A stretch of 64,000 nucleotides of DNA from an uncultured Spirochaetales bacterium (GTDB lineage Bacteria > Myxococcota_A > UBA9160 > SMWR01), in NCBI GenBank assembly GCA_964494795.1, contig CAZBSV010000005.1, forward strand, positions 12,842-76,841, given 5' to 3'. Shown here one piece after another: positions 38,305 through 64,000 of the stretch (position 1 is the first letter of the stretch; every line of letters begins with the position of its first letter). Under the pieces are notes generated by a model. That model did not search any database, was not told where the DNA came from, and was given only the letters and a program-made list of their open reading frames with translations. A program made the position numbers and the translations under genes.

Positions 38305-38922
38305 TCAGCGCTTCGGGCGCATCCTGCGCCCAACCCCATACAGGCCACCCAGTCCCATACCGAGCAGGGAAAGCGTACTCGGCTCGGGCACGACCGCGAA
38401 GGCGCTGTTGAACGTGGTCGTTGGGGTGATGACATTGTAGAAACCATCCAATATGTCGTCCGTAGGAGCGAAGTCGCCCGAGGTGATCTGAAAGGATCCC
38501 GCGGTCGCGGTGTCGAGATGGAACACGACGGTCCCCAGCAAATAGCTCTGTCCGGCCAACAGACCGTCCGGACCAGGCGGAGCAAACACCGTAGCGTTGA
38601 TGTTTCTGATTTGGGTTCCGGTATCCGTGGTAGCTCCGAGTCCGAGCGGCAGAGGGCCTCCCTGGAAGCTCTGGAAGCTGACGACCGAAAAATCCGCAAC
38701 CAGCGCCGTGTAGTCGATACTCATACCGCCGCCCGCCGAACCATTCGCACCTGCTGTGAGGATCACGTTCAGCGTGATGTTGCTCGACGCAAGGGCAATG
38801 CTCGTGGTGTTTGTTCCAGAGGCCGCCCAGATCAAATCGATCGTTGCGCTCGCACTGGCCGCGCCGGCGAAGCCCGCCAGTGCGATGAGTCCACCAGCCA
38901 TACCGACCAAGAATTTCCGCAT
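38305..38922 (-). CDS. PEP-CTERM sorting-domain protein 1
   Basis: ATG at 38922 preceded by GAGGAGA. The signal peptide ends AGAASASA. The C-terminus is VPEPSTLSLLGMGLGGLYGVGRRMRPKR (PEP motif, TM, basic tail). Confidence 0.85.
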   Translation of the reverse strand: MRKFLVGMAGGLIALAGFAGAASASATIDLIWAASGTNTTSIALASSNITLNVILTAGANGSAGGGMSIDYTALVADFSVVSFQSFQGGPLPLGLGATTDTGTQIRNINATVFAPPGPDGLLAGQSYLLGTVVFHLDTATAGSFQITSGDFAPTDDILDGFYNVITPTTTFNSAFAVVPEPSTLSLLGMGLGGLYGVGRRMRPKR

Positions 38923-38997
38923 CTTCCTATCTCCTCGTTCCTCGTGTTCCACGACGTAAATCGTGCAAAGTGTTTCGAACCACACAGCGGTCTTCGA

Positions 38998-39384
38998 CTA
39001 CGGGCAGGCAGTCGTGCCCGTTGTCGTACCCGACGGGCCGGGGACGACGCCAAAATTCAGCGCAAAAAACGCATACTGCGCGAAGCCCACGGTGCAACCC
39101 GGGATCGTACCGGTGTGACATTTTTCCTGGTCGTTGGTGCCGAAGGCGAGGGCAAACTGACCGAAGTCGCTGAATCCAGGAACGCCATTGTTGTCGTAAT
39201 CCGCGTCGCAGCGGTTTCCGCACAGATCTCCGTCCGTGTCGTCCTGGGCCGAATTCAAGGCTGTTCTACAGTTGTCCTGAAAATCGTAGAGACCATCGCC
39301 GTCAGTGTCGGTCGGGGGGCCAGCCAACGCGGGCGCCCCCCAGAACAACAAGACCAAAGTGCTTGCAAGTAGCATGCGTTTCAT
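38998..39384 (-). CDS. small secreted Cys-rich protein with TSP3-type Ca-binding repeat and dockerin-like segment, paralog 1
   Basis: 128 aa. MKRMLLASTLVLLFWGAPALA / GPPTDTDGDGLYDFQDNC...DDTDGDLCGNRCDADYDNNGVPGFSDFGQF...PGPSGTTTGTTACP. Confidence 0.7.
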   Translation of the reverse strand: MKRMLLASTLVLLFWGAPALAGPPTDTDGDGLYDFQDNCRTALNSAQDDTDGDLCGNRCDADYDNNGVPGFSDFGQFALAFGTNDQEKCHTGTIPGCTVGFAQYAFFALNFGVVPGPSGTTTGTTACP

Positions 39385-39707
39385 GGGGGGGCTCTCCTCT
39401 TTATTCACGCCTAAGTGCGCGGCGTGCCTCTCTTGTTCGGCCGTTCGCAGAAGAGCCTTTAGGCATAATGTCACCCCAATCACGGAAGCCGGCTGAAAGA
39501 CACGGACGAGCCGGGGCTGAAAGACGAGATCCAGCAAAGGCGAAGAATTACAGCCACGCCGTGACGCGATCTCCACGCGTCAGAAGCGCGTATGTCGAAG
39601 GAGAGCGGAAACGCGCGCGCGTTAGATCCGAGGTCAGGTCGGACGTCAGAGGTCAAAGGTCAGGTCAGAGAAGAGGGCGCCGTGGAACGGGGCAAGCAGT
39701 GTGGCGC

Positions 39708-39839
39708 GGGAGAATGGTGGGAGAAGAAGGGAGAATGGCGGGAGAAGAAGACGGGGGACGCATCGGAGTGGAGGCGTCGACGGGAGAGAAGAGGAGTTCA
39801 GCGAGACGCAACTTGAATGCAAGACGCAACTTGAATGCA
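39708..39839. repeat. two adjacent tandem duplications (21 bp x2 and 18 bp x2) in a purine-rich spacer
   Basis: GGGAGAATGGTGGGAGAAGAA / GGGAGAATGGCGGGAGAAGAA at 39708-39749. AGACGCAACTTGAATGCA x2 at 39804-39839. Confidence 0.9.
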
Positions 39840-39870
39840 AAACGCCCCGGGTCGAAACCCGGGGCGTTTT
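39839..39870 (-). terminator. rho-independent-type terminator (bidirectional hairpin)
   Basis: AAAACGCCCCGGG-TCGAAA-CCCGGGGCGTTTT is a 13-bp stem flanked by A and T runs. It lies 35 nt downstream of PEP-CTERM gene 2. Confidence 0.8.
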
Positions 39871-39904
39871 GATCTGGTCGAGCGCTACGCTAGGAAAACT
39901 TGAT

Positions 39905-40528
39905 CTAGCTCCTGCGGCTGCGCCCTGCGAGCGCGACGCCACCCAGTGCCATCACGAGCAGGGAGATGGCTCCCGGCTCCGGGGCATTGATCAGGCTGGC
40001 GCTGTTCAGCGTAAGCGTCGCGTTCGATATGGTATCGCCAGCGAAGTTCAGAATGCCGTCATTAGGCCCCATGACCGGCCGGAACGTAAACGTGCCGTTT
40101 CCGAGCGCGCTCTTTCGGAACGTGATCGTTCCGAGCTGGGCGGTTCCGCCCGCGCCTTGTATGCCGGTGCCGACACCTAGGAAGCAGACGCAGACCGCGT
40201 TGAGGCCCACAATCTGCGATCCCGAGTCGGTCGGCAGTCCGAGAGTCGACGGGAACACATTTGATGGAATGTTCGGTGTGTTCGCGAATGAGACGACCGC
40301 CACCTTGCTCAGTGCGTTGCTGTAGTCGACGCTCACAACGCCGCCCGACGAGCCGCCCGCGCCCGTGGTGAGCCTCACGTTCAGGACGATTGTGCCCGAC
40401 AGCGGGACGTCTTGAATCGTGTTAGTGCCGTTGGCCCAAAGAAGGTCGATCGTGGCGCTCGCACTGGCTGCACCGGCAAACCCCACCAGTGCAACCAAGC
40501 CCACTGCTGCTGTAAAGAATTTCCGCAT
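39905..40528 (-). CDS. PEP-CTERM sorting-domain protein 2
   Basis: MRKFFTAAVGLVALVGFAGAASASATIDLLWA shares the N-terminal ATIDL(I/L)WA with protein 1. The C-terminus is APEPGAISLLVMALGGVALAGRSRRS. Confidence 0.85.
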   Translation of the reverse strand: MRKFFTAAVGLVALVGFAGAASASATIDLLWANGTNTIQDVPLSGTIVLNVRLTTGAGGSSGGVVSVDYSNALSKVAVVSFANTPNIPSNVFPSTLGLPTDSGSQIVGLNAVCVCFLGVGTGIQGAGGTAQLGTITFRKSALGNGTFTFRPVMGPNDGILNFAGDTISNATLTLNSASLINAPEPGAISLLVMALGGVALAGRSRRS

Positions 40529-40610
40529 TGTCCTGTCTCCTCGATTAACTCAGAGTGTTCTGATCAAGATCAGAGTGGTTTGATTGCAATGTTTCCCGAA
40601 GCTCCTACGG

Positions 40611-41012
40611 CTACAACGGGCAAGCCACCGTTCCCGGTGTTGTTCCAGACGGACCGGGCGCCTTGAGGTAGAGCTGACCGAATCTGCCGAAGTCGGAAAC
40701 ATTAACCGTGCAGCCGGGAACGACGTGGCCGATGGCGATGCAAAAGCTCTCCGCGCCCGTTTTGCCGTACTTTTGGCCGAACAAACCGAAATCCGTAACG
40801 TTCGTGTTGCCTAGTTGGTTAAAATCGGCGTCGCAGACGTTTCCGCACTTATCCGAGTCGCTGTCATCCTGAGCCGGATTCTTCGCAATTTTGCAGTTGT
40901 CGGCTATATCTACGATCCCGTCGCTGTCCGTGTCGGGTCCGGCGGTGCCCGCGAATGCGGGGCTTCCCCACAGCATGAACGCGAACATCGCTGCCAATAT
41001 CGTCAATCTCAT
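40611..41012 (-). CDS. small secreted Cys-rich TSP3/dockerin-like protein, paralog 2
   Basis: 133 aa. MRLTILAAMFAFMLWGSPAFA / GTAGPDTDSDGIVDIADNC..DDSDSDKCGNVCDADFNQLGNTNVTDFGLFGQKYG...VNVSDFGRFGQLYL..PGPSGTTPGTVACPL. Confidence 0.7.
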   Translation of the reverse strand: MRLTILAAMFAFMLWGSPAFAGTAGPDTDSDGIVDIADNCKIAKNPAQDDSDSDKCGNVCDADFNQLGNTNVTDFGLFGQKYGKTGAESFCIAIGHVVPGCTVNVSDFGRFGQLYLKAPGPSGTTPGTVACPL

Positions 41013-41129
41013 TTTAAGCTCCTTGTCGATGGCGCTGACCAGTTTCAGTTCTCAATTCCCAGTTCTTCTGACTTTCGACCGATTGCATTTCGCCAGGGGA
41101 CATTAAGCCCGAATTCGCTCCAGGTTGTC

Positions 41130-41145
41130 CAGTCAAAAATGACTG
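41130..41145. promoter_or_regulatory. perfect 16-bp palindrome CAGTCAAAAATGACTG in the conserved leader; candidate operator
   Basis: 6-4-6 palindrome about 125 nt upstream of the start at 41012. An identical copy lies at 55604-55619. Confidence 0.35.
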
Positions 41146-41201
41146 TTTGCCCAAAGAATTTCGCGAGCCCGATCAACCGATCAATCCGCAGATAGAAGAC
41201 G

Positions 41202-41250
41202 CTCCCATTTCTCCCATTTACTCGCTTTCTCGCTTTCTCGCTTTCTCGCG
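41202..41250. repeat. microsatellite-like repeats (9 bp x2, 8 bp x3.5)
   Basis: CTCCCATTT x2, then CTCGCTTT x3 plus CTCGCG. They sit exactly where similarity between duplication copies A and B ends. Confidence 0.9.
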
Positions 41251-41407
41251 ATCTCTGGCAGGGCCAACCAGAATCCCCTGCGCGCATCGCACTTGGGCCC
41301 GATTATGTGCAAACGCGATGCCACTGGCCAACTGAAAGGTAAGTCATTGATCTTAAAGGAAGTTTTATATCTGGCGAAGGAGCCGGGTGTGAACGCGCGT
41401 TCCTGAA

Positions 41408-41427
41408 TAGGGAAAAGCTTTTCCCTA
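41408..41427 (-). terminator. perfect 20-bp palindromic hairpin just downstream of the exosortase stop
   Basis: TAGGGAAAAGCTTTTCCCTA lies 9 nt after the stop codon at 41436. Confidence 0.6.
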
Positions 41428-41435
41428 GGGCTGCG

Positions 41436-42995
41436 CTATACGCTCGGCGGGTAGCCGGTGAGGTCGATTTTGGGTCGGAACGAGCGGTAGAAATCGAGCA
41501 GCAGCGCCTCCGCGGCGGCTAGCCGCGAGGGGCTCGTCGCCCCCAAGGGCGTGCTGATTCGCACGGAAACGCCCTCTCGCGGCCGGCCCCAGGCGCTGTT
41601 GTCCAGCGCGAGCGCGTAGCGGAGGATTTCGTCCGCGAGGCCCCGGCTTCCCTGCGTCCAGTCGAGTGCCAGCTCTCGCCGATTCCCCGTCCCGAAGCGG
41701 ACCACGCTCAGCCGCGCCCGCGGGCCATCGAGCGGCAGCGCAACTTCGCGCAATTCATCCTCCCGCCACCAGCCGCTGCCGGGAAACGCGGTTTTGGGTG
41801 AAAGCGGACTCCCGTTGCGGGTTTCGAGATTGCCGACGCCGACGAACAGCCGCACCGACTCTCGGCCTCGCTTGTATTCGCGATCGACCCGCGCCCGGAA
41901 GCGCACGATTCCGAGATAGGCGAGATCCGTATTGAGCGCGGTGGACGTCCAGCCGTCCAATTCCTTGGGGATCTGGTTGTCCGGGAGGGGTAGCGACCCG
42001 CGCGCGGGTGCCTGCCAGCGCGGCAGCGTCTCGGAGAGGGTCACGAGCGCGCCCGCGATCAGCGCGCTGACGAGCAGCGGTCCGACGAGGCTGGTCTTCG
42101 CAGGTCGAGCGTCGCTCGACGCAGCGGCTCGCTTGGCGCGTGCGCGGCGGGGCAAGAATTTCTCCAGCACCCCGTCAATTCCATAGAGGATCAGCAGGCC
42201 GACGAGCAGCATCGCGATCCCCTGCATGGTGTGGATTTCGCCGATCTCCGAATGCGGGTTCAAGATCAGCGTGACGGCGCGAAGCCCGTTGACGCCGAAC
42301 GCGACCACGGGTGCCGCGACGAGTAGCAGCGCGGCGTGCAGTCCGCGGCGCCGAAACATGTCCAGCATCAGGAACGCGAGCATCGTGAGCGACTCGCAGG
42401 AGCGCAGGCCCGCGCAGGTTTCGATGATCGCGAAGTTCTGGTCCGGCTGGAGGATCTGGTCCCCGGTGACTGAAGTGGGAATCCCAAGCACGCGCAGCAC
42501 GAAACCCGTGTACTCGGCGGTCCAGATCTGCATCGCCCAGAGAACCTGATTGAGCAGCGCTGCGGGGATCCGCATCGCCAACACCAGAAACAACGTCGGC
42601 AGCGCGAGTATCCGGAGCGCTGGCGCGCCCCAGAGCAGTGCCCCGGTACCCATCAAGTGGAGCATCAGCGCGGGAACGAGCAGATCTTGCGCGCCGGTGT
42701 AGGTCGCCCAGGCGTAGATCGCGACGCAAGGCAGCAGCAGGCCGAGCGCGAGGCCGTATGCTGCGCGCCGCGGCAGCGCGAGCAGTCGATACCAGCGGCG
42801 GTAGACGAACCAGAGCGCGACAACGAGTGTCACGCCAGGGCCCGATGCGGTGCTGTGAAAAAACAGATTCTCCACTTCATGCTCGAGGTCGTAACTGCTC
42901 GTCGTGAAGAGGCCTTGGTAGGCGAGCGCGGATAGGATCAGCGCGAGCGCTGCGAGCGCGATGTAACGCCAATCGATGCTGCTGATGATGCTCAA
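41436..42995 (-). CDS. exosortase fused to a C-terminal EpsI-family domain
   Basis: TTG start. It is polytopic. The exosortase catalytic region is FAIIETCAGLRS, followed by NGLRAV and H-containing helices. After the last TM the periplasmic domain contains IPKELDGW...REYKRG...SPLSPKTAFPGSGWW, resembling EpsI. Confidence 0.85.
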   Translation of the reverse strand: MSIISSIDWRYIALAALALILSALAYQGLFTTSSYDLEHEVENLFFHSTASGPGVTLVVALWFVYRRWYRLLALPRRAAYGLALGLLLPCVAIYAWATYTGAQDLLVPALMLHLMGTGALLWGAPALRILALPTLFLVLAMRIPAALLNQVLWAMQIWTAEYTGFVLRVLGIPTSVTGDQILQPDQNFAIIETCAGLRSCESLTMLAFLMLDMFRRRGLHAALLLVAAPVVAFGVNGLRAVTLILNPHSEIGEIHTMQGIAMLLVGLLILYGIDGVLEKFLPRRARAKRAAASSDARPAKTSLVGPLLVSALIAGALVTLSETLPRWQAPARGSLPLPDNQIPKELDGWTSTALNTDLAYLGIVRFRARVDREYKRGRESVRLFVGVGNLETRNGSPLSPKTAFPGSGWWREDELREVALPLDGPRARLSVVRFGTGNRRELALDWTQGSRGLADEILRYALALDNSAWGRPREGVSVRISTPLGATSPSRLAAAEALLLDFYRSFRPKIDLTGYPPSV

Positions 42996-43091
42996 CGCAG
43001 CCTCCCGTTGCGGGCCGGATTTCCCGCCCTAGTCCATCGACCCGTAAGCGGCGATTCGTTACCGATGCGTGACGAAAGCGCGCGACGGACC

Positions 43092-43289
43092 CGGCGTGTT
43101 CGACGGGCCCGACCTGTTTGACAGGTGCGAGCTGTTTGACAGGCCCTAGCTGCTTGACAGGCGCGAGCTGCTTGACAGCCGCGAGCCGTTTGACAGCCGC
43201 GAGCCGTTTGACAGCCGCGAACCGTTTGACAGCCGCGAACCGTTTGACAGCCGCGAACCGTTTGACACCCGCGAGCCGTTTGACTGGAC
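43092..43289. repeat. 18-bp tandem repeat array, 11 copies, each carrying TTGACA
   Basis: The core unit CGAGCCGTTTGACAGCCG is perfect or near-perfect in the central copies and degenerate at both ends. It fills the gap between the lipoprotein gene stop (43297) and the exosortase start (42995). Confidence 0.95.
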
Positions 43290-43296
43290 ACCGCGA

Positions 43297-44166
43297 TCAA
43301 CGCTGCGGGGAGTCATGCGACCGCGAATCCGGCAGATCCTCGAAGCCGAAGAAGAGATCGTCATAGTAGACGTCCGCATGCAGCGCGGCCCCCTCGGGCT
43401 TGTCGTCCCAGCGGACCCCGAAGATCACCCCCAGCTTCTGGTACTTCTCCGGCAGAGTCCCCCAGAGCCGCTCGAAGTCGCTTTTCACCGGTAGATCGAA
43501 GTGCACCCAGGTTGCAAGTTCGGGTGGTCCATGGGCGATGATCGCCGTCTTGACGTTTCCCCCGTCATCGGGTTCTTCGGCGGGCCCCGCGAGCTGGTAG
43601 CGGACCTGTAGGTTGTTGAGTTCTGGGCTGATCTCCGTGTCAGCTGGATGATGCGACGCAACGATTTCGGGCGTGCGCGGGTCGCCGGCCGCGACGACGA
43701 TGATCTGTAGCTGGAGAATTCCCGATTCCGGGACATCCTCCCATCTCTCCACGCGATACCAGCCCGCAACCCTGTCGGGAAAGCGGGTTGGCGAGATTTC
43801 CTGGGGCGCGCTGACGAAGCGGACGGGGCGCTCTTGGTCTCCTGGCTGCCAGCTCGCGAGAAAGTAGGCGGAGCGATGGCCCGCGTGTACGGGCGCAGTC
43901 GCGAGTTCGAAATCGACCAACTTGCGGTCGCCGCCCTCTCCCCAGCCTTCCGTGTCCTCCTCGAAGCCCGGGTTTCGCAGTTGATTTCCGACGAGCAGAG
44001 GGGTTGGGGCCTGCCACTTCACATCGAGACGCTTCTGCACCGGAGGCGCTGCGTCGCCGCAGGACAGCACAGCGGCGGCGAGCATCAGCGCGACCGCGTG
44101 GCCGGCCCGCCTTGCTTGCGTTCGGTGCTCTACTTGCGTTCGTTGCTCTAGTATGGGCTTGGCCAT
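43297..44166 (-). CDS. hypothetical lipoprotein with CBM4/9-like sugar-binding signature
   Basis: Internal ATG at 44166. Lipobox LAAAVLSCGD. NPGFEEDTEGW is typical of the start of CBM_4_9-type beta-sandwiches. Confidence 0.55.
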   Translation of the reverse strand: MAKPILEQRTQVEHRTQARRAGHAVALMLAAAVLSCGDAAPPVQKRLDVKWQAPTPLLVGNQLRNPGFEEDTEGWGEGGDRKLVDFELATAPVHAGHRSAYFLASWQPGDQERPVRFVSAPQEISPTRFPDRVAGWYRVERWEDVPESGILQLQIIVVAAGDPRTPEIVASHHPADTEISPELNNLQVRYQLAGPAEEPDDGGNVKTAIIAHGPPELATWVHFDLPVKSDFERLWGTLPEKYQKLGVIFGVRWDDKPEGAALHADVYYDDLFFGFEDLPDSRSHDSPQR

Positions 44167-61730: not shown

Positions 61731-61838
61731 GGGGGCCCAGTTGGCTGGGTCGCTCCGCATCGCAACGCGGTTGATTGCGCGCGAGGGGGGCCAGTTGGCC
61801 GGGTCGCTCCGCGTTGCAGGGCGGCTGAATGCGGGGGG
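61731..61838. repeat. imperfect 54-bp tandem duplication
   Basis: GGGGGCCCAGTTGGCTGGGTCGCTCCGCATCGCAACGCGG... / GGGGGGCCAGTTGGCCGGGTCGCTCCGCGTTGCAGGGCGG... Confidence 0.8.
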
Positions 61839-61930
61839 TGGGAGCAGTTGGGGCGGGGGGGAGAATTGAGTTCCAATTGGGGAGAGTGTCGGGTATCGTG
61901 TTGAATTGGCTACGTGTTTTGGAGATCCGG

Positions 61931-62503
61931 GTGCGGGTGGCCGGTTGCCTCGGGATTTTTGGGGCCGCGTTGTTGGCGGCGCTCTTGTTTGCCGCCGGAT
62001 TTGCGCGGGGCGACTCTCCGGTTCGCGATTCCAGGCGCGAGGTGACGCGCGACGCGTCGGGTCGGCCCACGGGTACGCGCTTGCTGCGAAGTTGGCGCGA
62101 GACCGTGAAGCTGGGCGGCCGCGACGAGCCGCGCAGCGTCGAGATCGTCTACGACTACGAGGCCGGCGTTGCGCGTCGGCGCATCTACGCGGTCGATGGT
62201 GCACTCATTGCCGATCAGCCGCTGGCCGACCAACCGCAGCCGTCTCCCGAAGAAATCGCCGACGCGGTTGCGGTGATCCGCGCGGATGCGGAACTCGGGA
62301 CGTTGGCGCGAAGGGTCAGCGCGAATTTCGACGGAGGCTTCGTGCTCCAGGAAGCCGCCGGCAAGGCTTGCGGGCCGGGCACTCGCTGTCTGCAGATCTT
62401 CATGCTGTCTGAATCGCGATTCGGTCTGCACCGGCGTTCGGCGGTCGACATACGCGGGGAACGCATCGCCCGCCGGAACTTCCACACGGCGGATGGCGAG
62501 TGA
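61931..62503 (+). CDS. secreted protein resembling copper amine oxidase N-terminal (N2/N3) domains (start uncertain)
   Basis: GTG at 61931 gives a signal-like MRVAGCLGIFGAALLAALLFAAGFA. QPSPEEIADAVAVIRAD resembles the P-L-s-x-E-E-I..A..i motif that opens the CAO N2 domain. Confidence 0.45.
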   Translation: MRVAGCLGIFGAALLAALLFAAGFARGDSPVRDSRREVTRDASGRPTGTRLLRSWRETVKLGGRDEPRSVEIVYDYEAGVARRRIYAVDGALIADQPLADQPQPSPEEIADAVAVIRADAELGTLARRVSANFDGGFVLQEAAGKACGPGTRCLQIFMLSESRFGLHRRSAVDIRGERIARRNFHTADGE

Positions 62504-62509
62504 TCTGAG

Positions 62510-64000
62510 ATGGCTGTCGTCCGCAGTTTCGCTCCGTTCGTCTTCGCCGTCGGCGTGCTTCTCTCGCCGATCGCCGCCAACGCTGGCCGTCCCAGTTGCA
62601 CGGGCGACGAGCACCTGCTCAGCTGGCCCAAAACCAATCCGCTCTGGGAGATGTGCTGGCTGCGTCCCGCGGAGAGCAGCGGTGGAAACGGCTCGGGACT
62701 CGAGCTGCGCGATGTTTATTTCCGCGGCCAACTCGTGCTCAAGCGCGCGCACGCGCCGATCCTGGCCGTCAAGTATCTGCCCGGCGGATGCGGCTGCTTC
62801 CGCGACTGGACCTTCGAAGAGGCGACCTTCATCGCCGACAACGAAATCTTTCCGGGCTACGCCGAGCCGAGATCGCCGCCGCTGACGGTCTGCGAAACCG
62901 GTGGCAGCGGAGGCGACGTCGGCAGCTTCCGAGGTGTCGCGGTCGAGAAGAAACCCAACGAGTTGATCCTGACCACACACATGCAGGCCGGCTGGTATCG
63001 CTACAAGATGACGTGGACGTTCCTTCCGAATGGAACGATCATTCCGTTCTTCGGTTACGCGTCCGTCCCCGCCTACTGCGTCACCTTGACCCATCATCAC
63101 CACAATTTCTGGCGTCTCGATTTCGACATCAACGGCGCGGATCACGACAATGTCGCCGAGACCAACGCGGGCGTGTCGCCGCTTGCAATACAGACCGAAA
63201 CCACGCGCAACTGGGTCGACGCGAACACCGCGTGGGAGATCCGCGACTCCAAAACGAAACTCGGCTACCGGCTGCTGCCGGGTGCGGGTGCGGAATCCGA
63301 AGATCTCGAAATGCCCGTCGACGAGTTTGCGGAAGCCGACGCGTGGATCCTCCACTACCAGCCGGGGAGTGAGGTCGAGGACCTGGACATCCCACCTGGA
63401 AACACGGAGTTCGCGTATTGCCGCAGCCGCATGGCCGCCTATGCGGACGGCGAGAGCGTCGAAGACACCGACGTGGTTTTCTGGTACCGCGCCGCCGCCA
63501 ATCACACGGGCGGAGAGATCGACCACTGCGAGCGCACCGGTCCGGTGATCGTGCCAATCGGGGACTGGGTGGATCCGGACTCGGACACGCTCGAAAACCC
63601 CGATGACAACTGCCCGTTCGAGCCGAATTCCGATCAACTCGACGCCGAAGGCGATGGAGTCGGGGACGCCTGCGACACTTGCCCGTCGACGCCGAACCCC
63701 GATCAGTTCGATCTCGATGGCGACGGACTCGGCGATCTCTGCGACGAAGATCGCGATGGCGACGGCGTGCTCGATGTTTCCGACAACTGCCCCGTCGACT
63801 CCAATCCCGACCAAGAGGACCTGGATTTCGACCTGCTCGGCGACGTTTGTGATTCGGATCGCGACGGAGACGGAACTCTCAACGCGGGCGACAACTGTCC
63901 GGATGCCTCCAATTCGAACCAGTCGGATTTCGATCTCGACGGGATCGGCGACGCCTGCGACCCGGACGACGACAACGACGGCCTGTTCGACAGCGTCGAA
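62510..64000 (+). CDS. copper-amine-oxidase-like catalytic domain fused to thrombospondin type-3 repeats; 3' end beyond the window
   Basis: Not in the track because it is open at the edge. My translation from the ATG at 62510 gives a signal peptide (MAVVRSFAPFVFAVGVLLSPIAANA). Then come QAGWYRYKMTWTFLPNGTI and LTHHHHNFWRLDFDING. From about 63560 there are at least five DxDxDGxGDxCD / DNCPxxxNxDQxD repeats. Confidence 0.7.
   Translation, partial: MAVVRSFAPFVFAVGVLLSPIAANAGRPSCTGDEHLLSWPKTNPLWEMCWLRPAESSGGNGSGLELRDVYFRGQLVLKRAHAPILAVKYLPGGCGCFRDWTFEEATFIADNEIFPGYAEPRSPPLTVCETGGSGGDVGSFRGVAVEKKPNELILTTHMQAGWYRYKMTWTFLPNGTIIPFFGYASVPAYCVTLTHHHHNFWRLDFDINGADHDNVAETNAGVSPLAIQTETTRNWVDANTAWEIRDSKTKLGYRLLPGAGAESEDLEMPVDEFAEADAWILHYQPGSEVEDLDIPPGNTEFAYCRSRMAAYADGESVEDTDVVFWYRAAANHTGGEIDHCERTGPVIVPIGDWVDPDSDTLENPDDNCPFEPNSDQLDAEGDGVGDACDTCPSTPNPDQFDLDGDGLGDLCDEDRDGDGVLDVSDNCPVDSNPDQEDLDFDLLGDVCDSDRDGDGTLNAGDNCPDASNSNQSDFDLDGIGDACDPDDDNDGLFDSVE

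Follow-up and report, generated by a model that had tools for sequence, protein, structure and literature searches.

Copper amine oxidases (CAOs) are the textbook case of a protein-derived cofactor made by self-processing, and the two residues flanking the Tyr precursor of topaquinone (TPQ), an Asn and an Asp or Glu, have been held to be strictly conserved and important for cofactor biogenesis. In the canonical bacterial enzymes, such as E. coli TynA (ECAO) and AGAO, domains D2, D3 and D4 are parts of a single chain. In this study, a pair of adjacent genes that departs from both features was analysed at the end of a 64,000-nucleotide (nt) stretch of an uncultured Spirochaetales bacterium (contig CAZBSV010000005.1, positions 12,842 to 76,841 of the forward strand); this whole stretch is called the window below. 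The two products, named here gene 1 and gene 2, probably form an exported two-subunit member of the CAO superfamily that acts as an amine oxidase with copper and a Tyr-derived quinone, although the replacement of both flanking residues leaves room for a different chemistry.

Organization of the gene pair

Both genes lie on the same strand, and 6 nt separate the stop codon of gene 1 from the start codon of gene 2. Gene 2 is open at the window end, where the initial annotation had to leave it; the full open reading frame (ORF) of 578 amino acids (aa) was obtained through an identical database protein, P0001, and from this length the gene is expected to end near 64246. The last 82 residues, which lie beyond the window, were taken from P0001 only. 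All sequence strings quoted in the initial annotation were found in place (GWYRY at 62990-63004 and HHHH at 63092-63103): QPSPEEIADAVAVIRAD is present within the gene 1 product, and residues 159-177 and 193-209 of gene 2 read QAGWYRYKMTWTFLPNGTI and LTHHHHNFWRLDFDING, respectively. The two proteins are not isolated cases, with at least 999 homologues of gene 2 and 36 of gene 1 in a 90%-clustered collection. The features of the pair are as follows.

61931..62503, plus strand: gene 1, small subunit; GTG start, TGA stop; 190 aa; identical to database protein P0121
61931..62008, plus strand: signal peptide or N-terminal anchor of gene 1, residues 1 to about 26, MRVAGCLGIFGAALLAALLFAAGFAR; hydrophobic, with a model helix at residues 8-22 of low pLDDT; cleavage site predicted
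62075..62221, plus strand: four-stranded beta sheet of gene 1, residues 49-97, putative remnant of CAO domain D2; from model secondary structure and hhalign alignment to the second half of ECAO D2
62240..62473, plus strand: alpha/beta domain of gene 1, residues 104-181, equivalent to CAO D3, with a PSPEEI helix and four strands; from model and hhalign
62510..64000, plus strand, open at the window end: gene 2, catalytic subunit; ATG start
62510..62584, plus strand: Sec signal peptide of gene 2, residues 1-25, ending ...PIAANA/G; from sequence and low N-terminal pLDDT; cleavage site predicted
62585..63568, plus strand: compact CAO D4-like beta-sandwich catalytic domain, residues 26-353; from AlphaFold2 (AF2), Foldseek and hhalign
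62774..62776, plus strand: Tyr89, aligned with ECAO Tyr369 by hhalign at high per-column confidence
62789..62809, plus strand: C94-G-C-F-R98-D99-W100; Arg98-Asp99 invariant, residue 97 a candidate gate
62990..63004, plus strand: G-W-Y-R-Y, residues 161-165, aligned to ECAO G-N-Y466-D-Y; Tyr163 at the TPQ-precursor position
63077..63079, plus strand: Cys190, conserved along with Cys94 in homologues with fused and with split genes
63092..63127, plus strand: H195-H-H197-H198-N-F-W-R202-L-D204-F-D206, aligned to ECAO H524-Q-H526...R-L-D533-L-D535
63470..63505, plus strand: D321-V-V-F-W-Y-R-A-A-A-N-H332; His332 is the third aligned copper ligand, and Asp321 is aligned with ECAO Asp678
63578..64000, plus strand: array of thrombospondin type-3 (TSP3) Ca-binding repeats, residues 357-496 and beyond; five stretches matched by Pfam TSP_3

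The catalytic domain of gene 2

The AF2 model of gene 2, built from an alignment of 39 homologues, reached a pLDDT of 89.6 and a pTM of 0.88. All top 50 matches of this model to the PDB in Foldseek were CAOs, with E-values down to 4.7e-14 and TM of about 0.6, and an assignment to an unrelated beta-sandwich family, which the initial annotation had considered, was not borne out. The Pfam model Cu_amine_oxid (PF01179) matched at 32.5 bits, against a gathering score of 27, and covered residues 225-333 only. When the family profile was searched against PDB sequences, the 35 best-scoring entries were CAOs (top E 4.5e-8); the single sequence found nothing relevant there with phmmer, and NCBIfam contains no specific model for the product of either gene. 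The gene 2 profile was also compared with a D4 profile of ten canonical CAOs (E. coli tynA plus nine further enzymes annotated as primary-amine oxidases, with sequences from plasmid records), to which it aligned over 317 columns (hhalign probability 98.7%, E 2.1e-16; the hhalign E-values given here are those of single pairwise comparisons). Sequence identity to the canonical enzymes is about 15%, and the domain comprises about 330 residues vs about 430 in ECAO, i.e., it is about 100 residues shorter. Sequence and model together show that gene 2 carries a compact CAO D4 catalytic domain.

The detached N-terminal module

The AF2 model of gene 1 (pLDDT 84.5; alignment built without locus-derived rows) consists of a leader helix, a sheet at residues 49-97, two helices at 106-128 and a four-stranded sheet at 132-181. 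Its 11 best Foldseek matches in the PDB, with E-values from 4.9e-5 to 7e-3 over about 160 aligned columns, were all chains of AGAO or ECAO; below them the list falls off sharply to unrelated proteins, none with an E-value better than 0.05. The gene 1 family profile aligned with the D2 sheet and the whole D3 of the canonical CAOs (hhalign probability 91.4%, E 9e-7), with the PSPEEIA helix as the start of D3. An alternative alignment that places this helix on the equivalent D2 helix was weaker (E 1.3e-3), as would be expected because D2 and D3 are duplicated domains. The profile matched the N-termini of 70 single-chain homologues more strongly (hhalign probability 98.7%, E 3.4e-16), and the N-terminal parts of these fused homologues in turn matched canonical D2 plus D3 (E 2.8e-9). 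Against ECAO alone the signal was weak (E 0.02-0.05), and ten-CAO profiles were needed for a clear one.

The initial annotation had likened gene 1 to the opening of the CAO N2/N3 domains. The D2-D3 alignment and the fold matches to CAOs only agree with this, while the Pfam N2/N3 models do not: no Pfam match was obtained even at E 10, nor was any found in NCBIfam or, with the family profile, among PDB sequences. The D3-type domain holds an invariant C147-G-P-G-x-R-C153, and the signal sequences of gene 1 homologues end in the A-x-A type. The model and the profile alignments show that gene 1 carries a remainder of D2 together with a complete D3.

Family size and pairing of the two genes

A hidden Markov model (HMM) search of 1.84 billion 50%-identity representatives with the gene 2 family gave 1492 matches at E<=1e-3 and 326 at E<=1e-30, and at least 549 family loci were found in species-representative genomes. 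The clade ranges over Acidobacteriota, Rhodothermales, Bacteroidota, Actinomycetota, Myxococcota, Burkholderiales, Nitrospira and Lysobacterales. The closest family genomes are metagenome-assembled genomes (MAGs) labelled Myxococcales or Deltaproteobacteria, and one gene 1 homologue is labelled Polarisedimenticolaceae. The hallmarks of the clade, all present in the window pair, are G-W-Y-R-Y, H-x-H-H-x-(Y/F)-W-R-x-D-x-D, Y89, (Y/F)-R-D-W and the N-terminal D2/D3 module, either fused or encoded directly upstream. In the source records the members are named 'hypothetical protein' or, automatically, 'Copper amine oxidase, enzyme domain' only. Sequence searches of the PDB returned no solved structure from this clade, and a literature search, with most subscription journals outside its coverage, returned no W-Y-R variant, split CAO, or amine oxidase linked to TSP3 repeats or an exosortase.

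The association of the two genes was surveyed by an HMM scan in all frames of 78 loci from species-representative genomes, of which 77 could be evaluated and one had too little upstream DNA. A separate module ORF stands immediately upstream on the same strand in 56 of the 77 loci, and in 20, about a quarter, module and catalytic domain are fused. The sole locus without the module belongs to a MAG that carries a complete pair as well, and it represents a second copy there. In all six homologue loci read by hand, a gene 1 homologue of 178-191 aa abuts or overlaps the catalytic gene. The pairing is thus essentially obligate, and these counts, with the fold matches and the alignment of gene 1 to the fused N-termini, uphold the split CAO-like pair of the initial annotation. 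Examples of fused forms are a protein of Variovorax sp. WDL1 (WP_162487223.1, 529 aa, annotated as hypothetical) and an ORF of Nonomuraea gerenzanensis (518 aa). Among the cultured carriers, Pseudofulvimonas gallinarii DSM 21944 has the split form.

Active-site residues and the altered cofactor motif

In the alignment to ECAO, Tyr163 of gene 2 corresponds to the TPQ residue 466, His195 and His197 to His524 and His526, His332 to His689, and Tyr89 to Tyr369. The CAO landmarks reported in the initial annotation therefore fall on the active-site columns of the CAOs and not elsewhere. ECAO Tyr369, like HPAO-1 Tyr305, is the strictly conserved Tyr that is hydrogen-bonded to O4 of TPQ. Asp204, Asp206 and Asp321 correspond to ECAO Asp533, Asp535 and Asp678, which make up its buried Ca site. 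The segment beginning at His195 contains two of the aligned copper ligands, an extra His198 that is specific to the family, and the R-x-D-x-D common to CAOs.

The motif around the precursor Tyr is Q-A-G-W-Y-R in the window, with Trp162 and Arg164 in the places of the canonical Asn and Asp/Glu, and the CAO consensus T-x-x-N-Y-D/E is not matched. The Trp and Arg noted in the initial annotation are real, although they are not peculiar to this gene but near-invariant across a very large clade. Among 266 diverse members from the HMM search that were aligned to the family HMM, for which all residue counts are given, the family motif is x-A-G-W-Y-R, with GWYRY in 231 and Asn-Tyr-Asp/Glu in none. Trp162 is found in 263 of them, Tyr163 in 265, Arg164 in 252 (Lys in 6) and Tyr165 in all 266. 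Conservation is similar at Tyr89 (263), Arg98 (263) and Asp99 (262), and residue 97 is Tyr or Phe in 262. His195 is kept in 256 members, His197 and Arg202 in 266 each, and His198 in 240; the position of His332 is occupied by His in 225 and by Asp in 23. Because the motif hardly varies, and neither do the His ligands, Tyr89 or Arg98-Asp99, GWYRY is, as judged from these sequences, a hallmark of the clade and not a sign of decay. The same near-invariance points to purifying selection on these residues and argues for a working active site.

Asp99 is a candidate for the catalytic base and the aromatic residue 97 for the gate. Asp99 lies 10 residues past Tyr89 in an aromatic-Arg-Asp-Trp context, and in ECAO Tyr381-Leu-Asp383 lies 14 past Tyr369, i.e., the loop is 4 residues shorter in gene 2. 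Cys94 is located 5 residues ahead of the invariant Asp99, and Cys190 5 residues ahead of the first copper His; the two may form an active-site disulfide or serve as a cross-link partner.

Predicted export and the C-terminal tail

Each gene product begins with its own hydrophobic N-terminal leader, and a hydrophobic N-terminus was found in 98% of the split-type catalytic subunits. Six Cys residues of gene 2 (Cys30, 49, 96, 128, 304 and 340) are 87-99% conserved in split forms vs 1-24% in fused ones, a pattern in keeping with structural disulfides in proteins that are exported. Conservation of Cys94 and Cys190 extends to both forms (96-97% in fused, 91-92% in split).

From about residue 357 (63578) gene 2 continues into the tail of at least five TSP3 repeats described in the initial annotation. 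Pfam TSP_3 (PF02412) matched it in 5 stretches with 96 bits against a gathering score of 25 (E 9.6e-28 to 1e-26), and the tandem motifs D-x-D-x-D-G-x-x-D-x-C-D and D-N-C-P-x-x-x-N-x-D-Q-x-D were located. Past the window end, the protein runs on through a segment of the bacterial TSP3-like type to a putative sorting signal at the C-terminus, IPAVSGWGLAVLGALLLGVAAGFLRRYSAARV, which comes near the thresholds of the IPTL-CTERM and VPAMP-CTERM models and is laid out as an IPAVS motif, a hydrophobic stretch WGLAVLGALLLGVAAGFL and a basic RRYSAARV. The tail is real, yet it is a lineage-specific addition: the TSP3 array with an IPAVSGWG-hydrophobic-RR end occurs only in close relatives of the window protein, about 13 of the 120 nearest clusters. 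Other family members have tails of the type IX secretion system (T9SS) or no tail, and bare secreted domains of 350 aa, T9SS-tagged forms and leaderless forms together make up most of the family.

An exosortase locus (38305-42995) lies within the window, with the following features.

41436-42995, minus strand: exosortase with EpsI/DUF3485 domain
38305-38985 and 39905-40528, minus strand: two PEP-CTERM proteins
38998-39576 and 40611-41012, minus strand: small secreted proteins with a single TSP3-like motif each

The TSP3-type repeat that had been reported in small exosortase-associated proteins was found in these last two ORFs, 19-23 kb upstream of the pair, one above the TSP_3 cut-off of 25 bits (38998-39576, 26.4 bits) and the other below it (40611-41012, 22.2 bits). 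It is plausible from the sequences that the gene 2 product is tethered by an exosortase-type pathway. Just upstream of the exosortase gene, an ORF at 42992-43300 on the minus strand encodes short repeats of the (T/A)RGCQ(T/A) type and represents a tandem DNA repeat.

Proposed mechanism and alternative explanations

In the proposed mechanism, both proteins would be exported by Sec and assembled outside the cytoplasm, with disulfides, as a D2'/D3 plus D4 unit. Cu(II) would be bound by His195, His197 and His332, and Tyr163 would be turned by self-catalysed oxidation into a cofactor of the topaquinone type, which Tyr89 would hold in place. Asp99 would serve as base in the oxidation of a primary amine, with an aldehyde, NH3 and H2O2 as products. 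The clade-specific residues Trp162, Arg164, His198, Arg98 and Cys94/Cys190 would reshape the cofactor pocket, and one may speculate that Arg164 and Arg98 reflect an amine substrate with a carboxylate or another negative charge. In this organism, the Ca-binding TSP3 spacer or stalk and the PEP-CTERM-class signal would place the catalytic subunit at the cell surface or in the matrix, with the exosortase at 41436-42995 as a possible sorter.

A TPQ-type amine oxidase is given somewhat better than even chances here. Several points weigh against it. The alignment of the catalytic base is ambiguous, and hhalign puts ECAO Asp383 opposite Phe102 at low confidence. The dimer-forming hairpin arms may be absent, because the gene 2 D4 is about 100 residues shorter than the canonical domain. 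None of the scores of the sorting tail reaches its curated cut-off (Pfam IPTL-CTERM 18.1/20.8, NCBIfam IPTL 19.8/20.5, VPAMP-CTERM 22.8/32). An all-against-all clustering of ORFs from the 78 loci found no conserved neighbours of amine metabolism: the clusters comprised the cassette itself, its antisense ORFs and lineage-restricted genes only, with no shared pathway. Finally, the Trp/Arg surroundings of Tyr163 may yield a different cofactor or none, because changes of the flanking residues impair TPQ formation in HPAO-1, where Asn404Ala leaves just 5-10% TPQ and Glu406Gln slows biogenesis tenfold (PMC3382800).

The alternative that survives best, possible though clearly less probable than the amine oxidase, is that the CAO fold and the copper site were kept while the chemistry differs, with a cofactor other than TPQ and a substrate other than a primary amine. 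Such a cofactor could be a site with Cu-tyrosinate or a tyrosyl radical, a quinone formed by cross-linking, or a Tyr that stays 'on-copper' permanently. The Asn and Asp/Glu that steer TPQ formation are replaced in 252-263 of the 266 members (for their role, see PMC3382800), His198 is an additional near-invariant His, Cys94/Cys190 are kept even in fused forms without the other six Cys, the third His is Asp in one sub-clade, and a galactose-oxidase-like gene adjoins the Variovorax homologue. However, the alignable residues of TPQ chemistry are all kept, namely the Tyr, the three His and Tyr89, which binds O4. The place where the base is expected is occupied by an invariant Asp, and no positive pointer to another cofactor was found. 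That the GWYRY clade represents a new class of quinoprotein or copper-radical enzyme, with a new protein-derived cofactor made on the CAO scaffold from the three-His copper site and the Trp-Tyr-Arg, His198 and Cys94-Cys190 set, or with a Cu-tyrosyl site for another kind of oxidation, is regarded as doubtful; if true, this class would extend over at least 549 sampled bacterial species and consist of two secreted subunits in many of them.

It is unlikely that the pair is a lysyl-oxidase-like matrix enzyme, a possibility raised in the initial annotation, which would be tethered to the surface, oxidise peptidyl lysines of exosortase-sorted proteins and cross-link the biofilm matrix. The TSP3 spacer and sorting tail of gene 2 would suit this role, as would the exosortase, PEP-CTERM and small TSP3 proteins within the window, and the lysyl oxidase of Pichia (PPLO) provides a precedent with the CAO fold (matches to 1rky, 1n9e and 1w7c). 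On the other hand, the tail is restricted to close relatives and the core function therefore cannot depend on tethering; besides the bare secreted and T9SS-tagged members, about one-third of the fused forms are leaderless, and the Pfam search gave no match to the LOX family.

Very improbable is the idea that gene 1 is a maturation or copper-delivery factor instead of a structural subunit, or that the pair is a non-catalytic binding protein (pseudoenzyme). Gene 1 is without family annotation, and its invariant C-G-P-G-x-R-C could possibly bind a metal; yet gene 1 is homologous to D2/D3, in 20 of 77 genomes it is covalently fused to the catalytic domain with the order of the parts unchanged, and the copper ligands and the Tyr are near-invariant across the 266 members. 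Three further candidates were ruled out: a decayed pseudogene pair by the strong conservation, a chance neighbour pair by synteny and fusions, and a true lysyl oxidase (LOX/LOXL, with lysine tyrosylquinone, LTQ) by the lack of a Pfam LOX match, the LOX enzymes being non-homologous to CAOs (PMC3382800).

Other features of the locus and its homologues

A 634-aa ORF runs antisense to both genes (61910-63814, minus strand). It is best read as an artefact of GC-rich DNA, because all homology sits on the plus-strand genes; antisense ORFs of the cassette likewise clustered across loci in the neighbour analysis. The intergenic region directly 5' of gene 1 (61731-61838) contains a 54-nt unit twice in tandem, the copies being 80% identical and each holding CCAGTTGGC(T/C)GGGTCGCTCCGC. 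No sigma-70-like promoter was found in the region upstream of gene 1.

The lineage-restricted neighbours of the homologues include BNR/sortilin-like, glutamate-receptor-like channel, PQQ-GSDH-like and multihaem cytochrome genes. In the closest relative with genomic context (80% identity), the genes downstream encode sulfatases and a spermine-synthase-like protein; these neighbours are not conserved at other loci. In two Acidobacteriota genomes (L001 and L002) the pair lies between M28 and S9/tricorn-type peptidases and near arginine decarboxylase and RidA genes, with AmtB-PII genes in L002 only; this is a weak hint at nitrogen scavenging and was not seen in other lineages. FG-GAP/ASPIC-type repeat proteins are encoded near the cassette in two unrelated lineages, one of them plasmid 3 of Variovorax sp. 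WDL1 (L007) and the other locus L004. The galactose-oxidase-like gene of Variovorax stands directly after the fused homologue.

The sub-clade in which the third copper His is replaced by Asp (23 of 266; e.g., P0081, P0095, P0102 and P0107) ends in 'GF(S/E)DGFESGD..W'. Two neighbouring ORFs, one PQQ-GSDH-like (L032) and the other multihaem-cytochrome-like (L031), terminate in this tail as well, and it may be an unrecognised C-terminal sorting tag in Holophagae/Acidobacteriota.

Significance of the GWYRY clade

A large and broad clade keeps the copper site and the Tyr, yet swaps both flanking residues to Trp and Arg under strong constraint. It thereby constitutes a natural experiment on what the TPQ consensus is needed for, and it offers a minimal catalytic domain of about 330 residues. 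It also supplies a rare example of an extracellular enzyme with its domains divided between two subunits that would be exported independently. Many carriers are uncultured soil or sediment bacteria, and extracellular amine oxidation there would bear on nitrogen scavenging and on H2O2 production.

Comparison with known systems

The canonical bacterial TPQ enzymes (ECAO and AGAO; PF01179 with PF02727/PF02728) share with the window pair the D4 beta-sandwich, the three His ligands, the equivalent of Tyr369, and a Tyr at the TPQ position with Y at +2 and W at +6. They also share the R-x-D-x-D and D-V-V-W segments and D2/D3-type alpha/beta module(s), and ECAO is likewise exported by a signal peptide. 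In the window pair, by contrast, G-W-Y-R-Y stands where they have (T-x-x-)N-Y-D/E-Y, H-x-H is followed by a further conserved His, and the N-terminal module is on a separate polypeptide in which D2 is represented by its sheet only, whereas canonical D2-D3-D4 is a single chain. Gene 2 further differs in its Cys94/Cys190 pair, its shorter D4 and its C-terminal TSP3 array with a putative sorting signal.

The fused members of the GWYRY clade show the hallmarks GWYRY, HxHH, RD(W) and Tyr89 as well, are 32-38% identical in the catalytic domain and arrange their modules in the same order. Unlike the window pair, they are single polypeptides with complete D2, D3 and D4, lack six of the eight Cys and any TSP3 or sorting tail, and, in about one-third of cases by a crude hydrophobicity test, have no hydrophobic N-terminus.

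Two other systems resemble the pair in part. Pichia pastoris lysyl oxidase has the CAO fold (1rky, 1n9e and 1w7c, E about 4e-12 to 2e-11) and is extracellular, but, as a canonical TPQ enzyme, it consists of a single chain, bears the N-Y-D/E motif and acts on peptidyl lysine. Myxococcus MtsC-type proteins (NCBIfam NF047638) likewise have a TSP3 array, followed by a C-terminal tripartite sorting signal to which the layout of the gene 2 tail corresponds, and the window protein scores 131-135 bits over the repeats; this is far under the 350-bit cut-off, with the repeats only matching. MtsC has no enzyme domain, and the window tail is IPTL/VPAMP-like and not of the MYXO-CTERM type.

By its sequence relationships, the window pair descends from the CAOs and probably works like them, while it lacks two of their defining canonical features, the consensus motif and the single-chain D2-D3-D4 arrangement. 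On this evidence it is most suitably placed within the CAO superfamily in a separate, uncharacterised clade.

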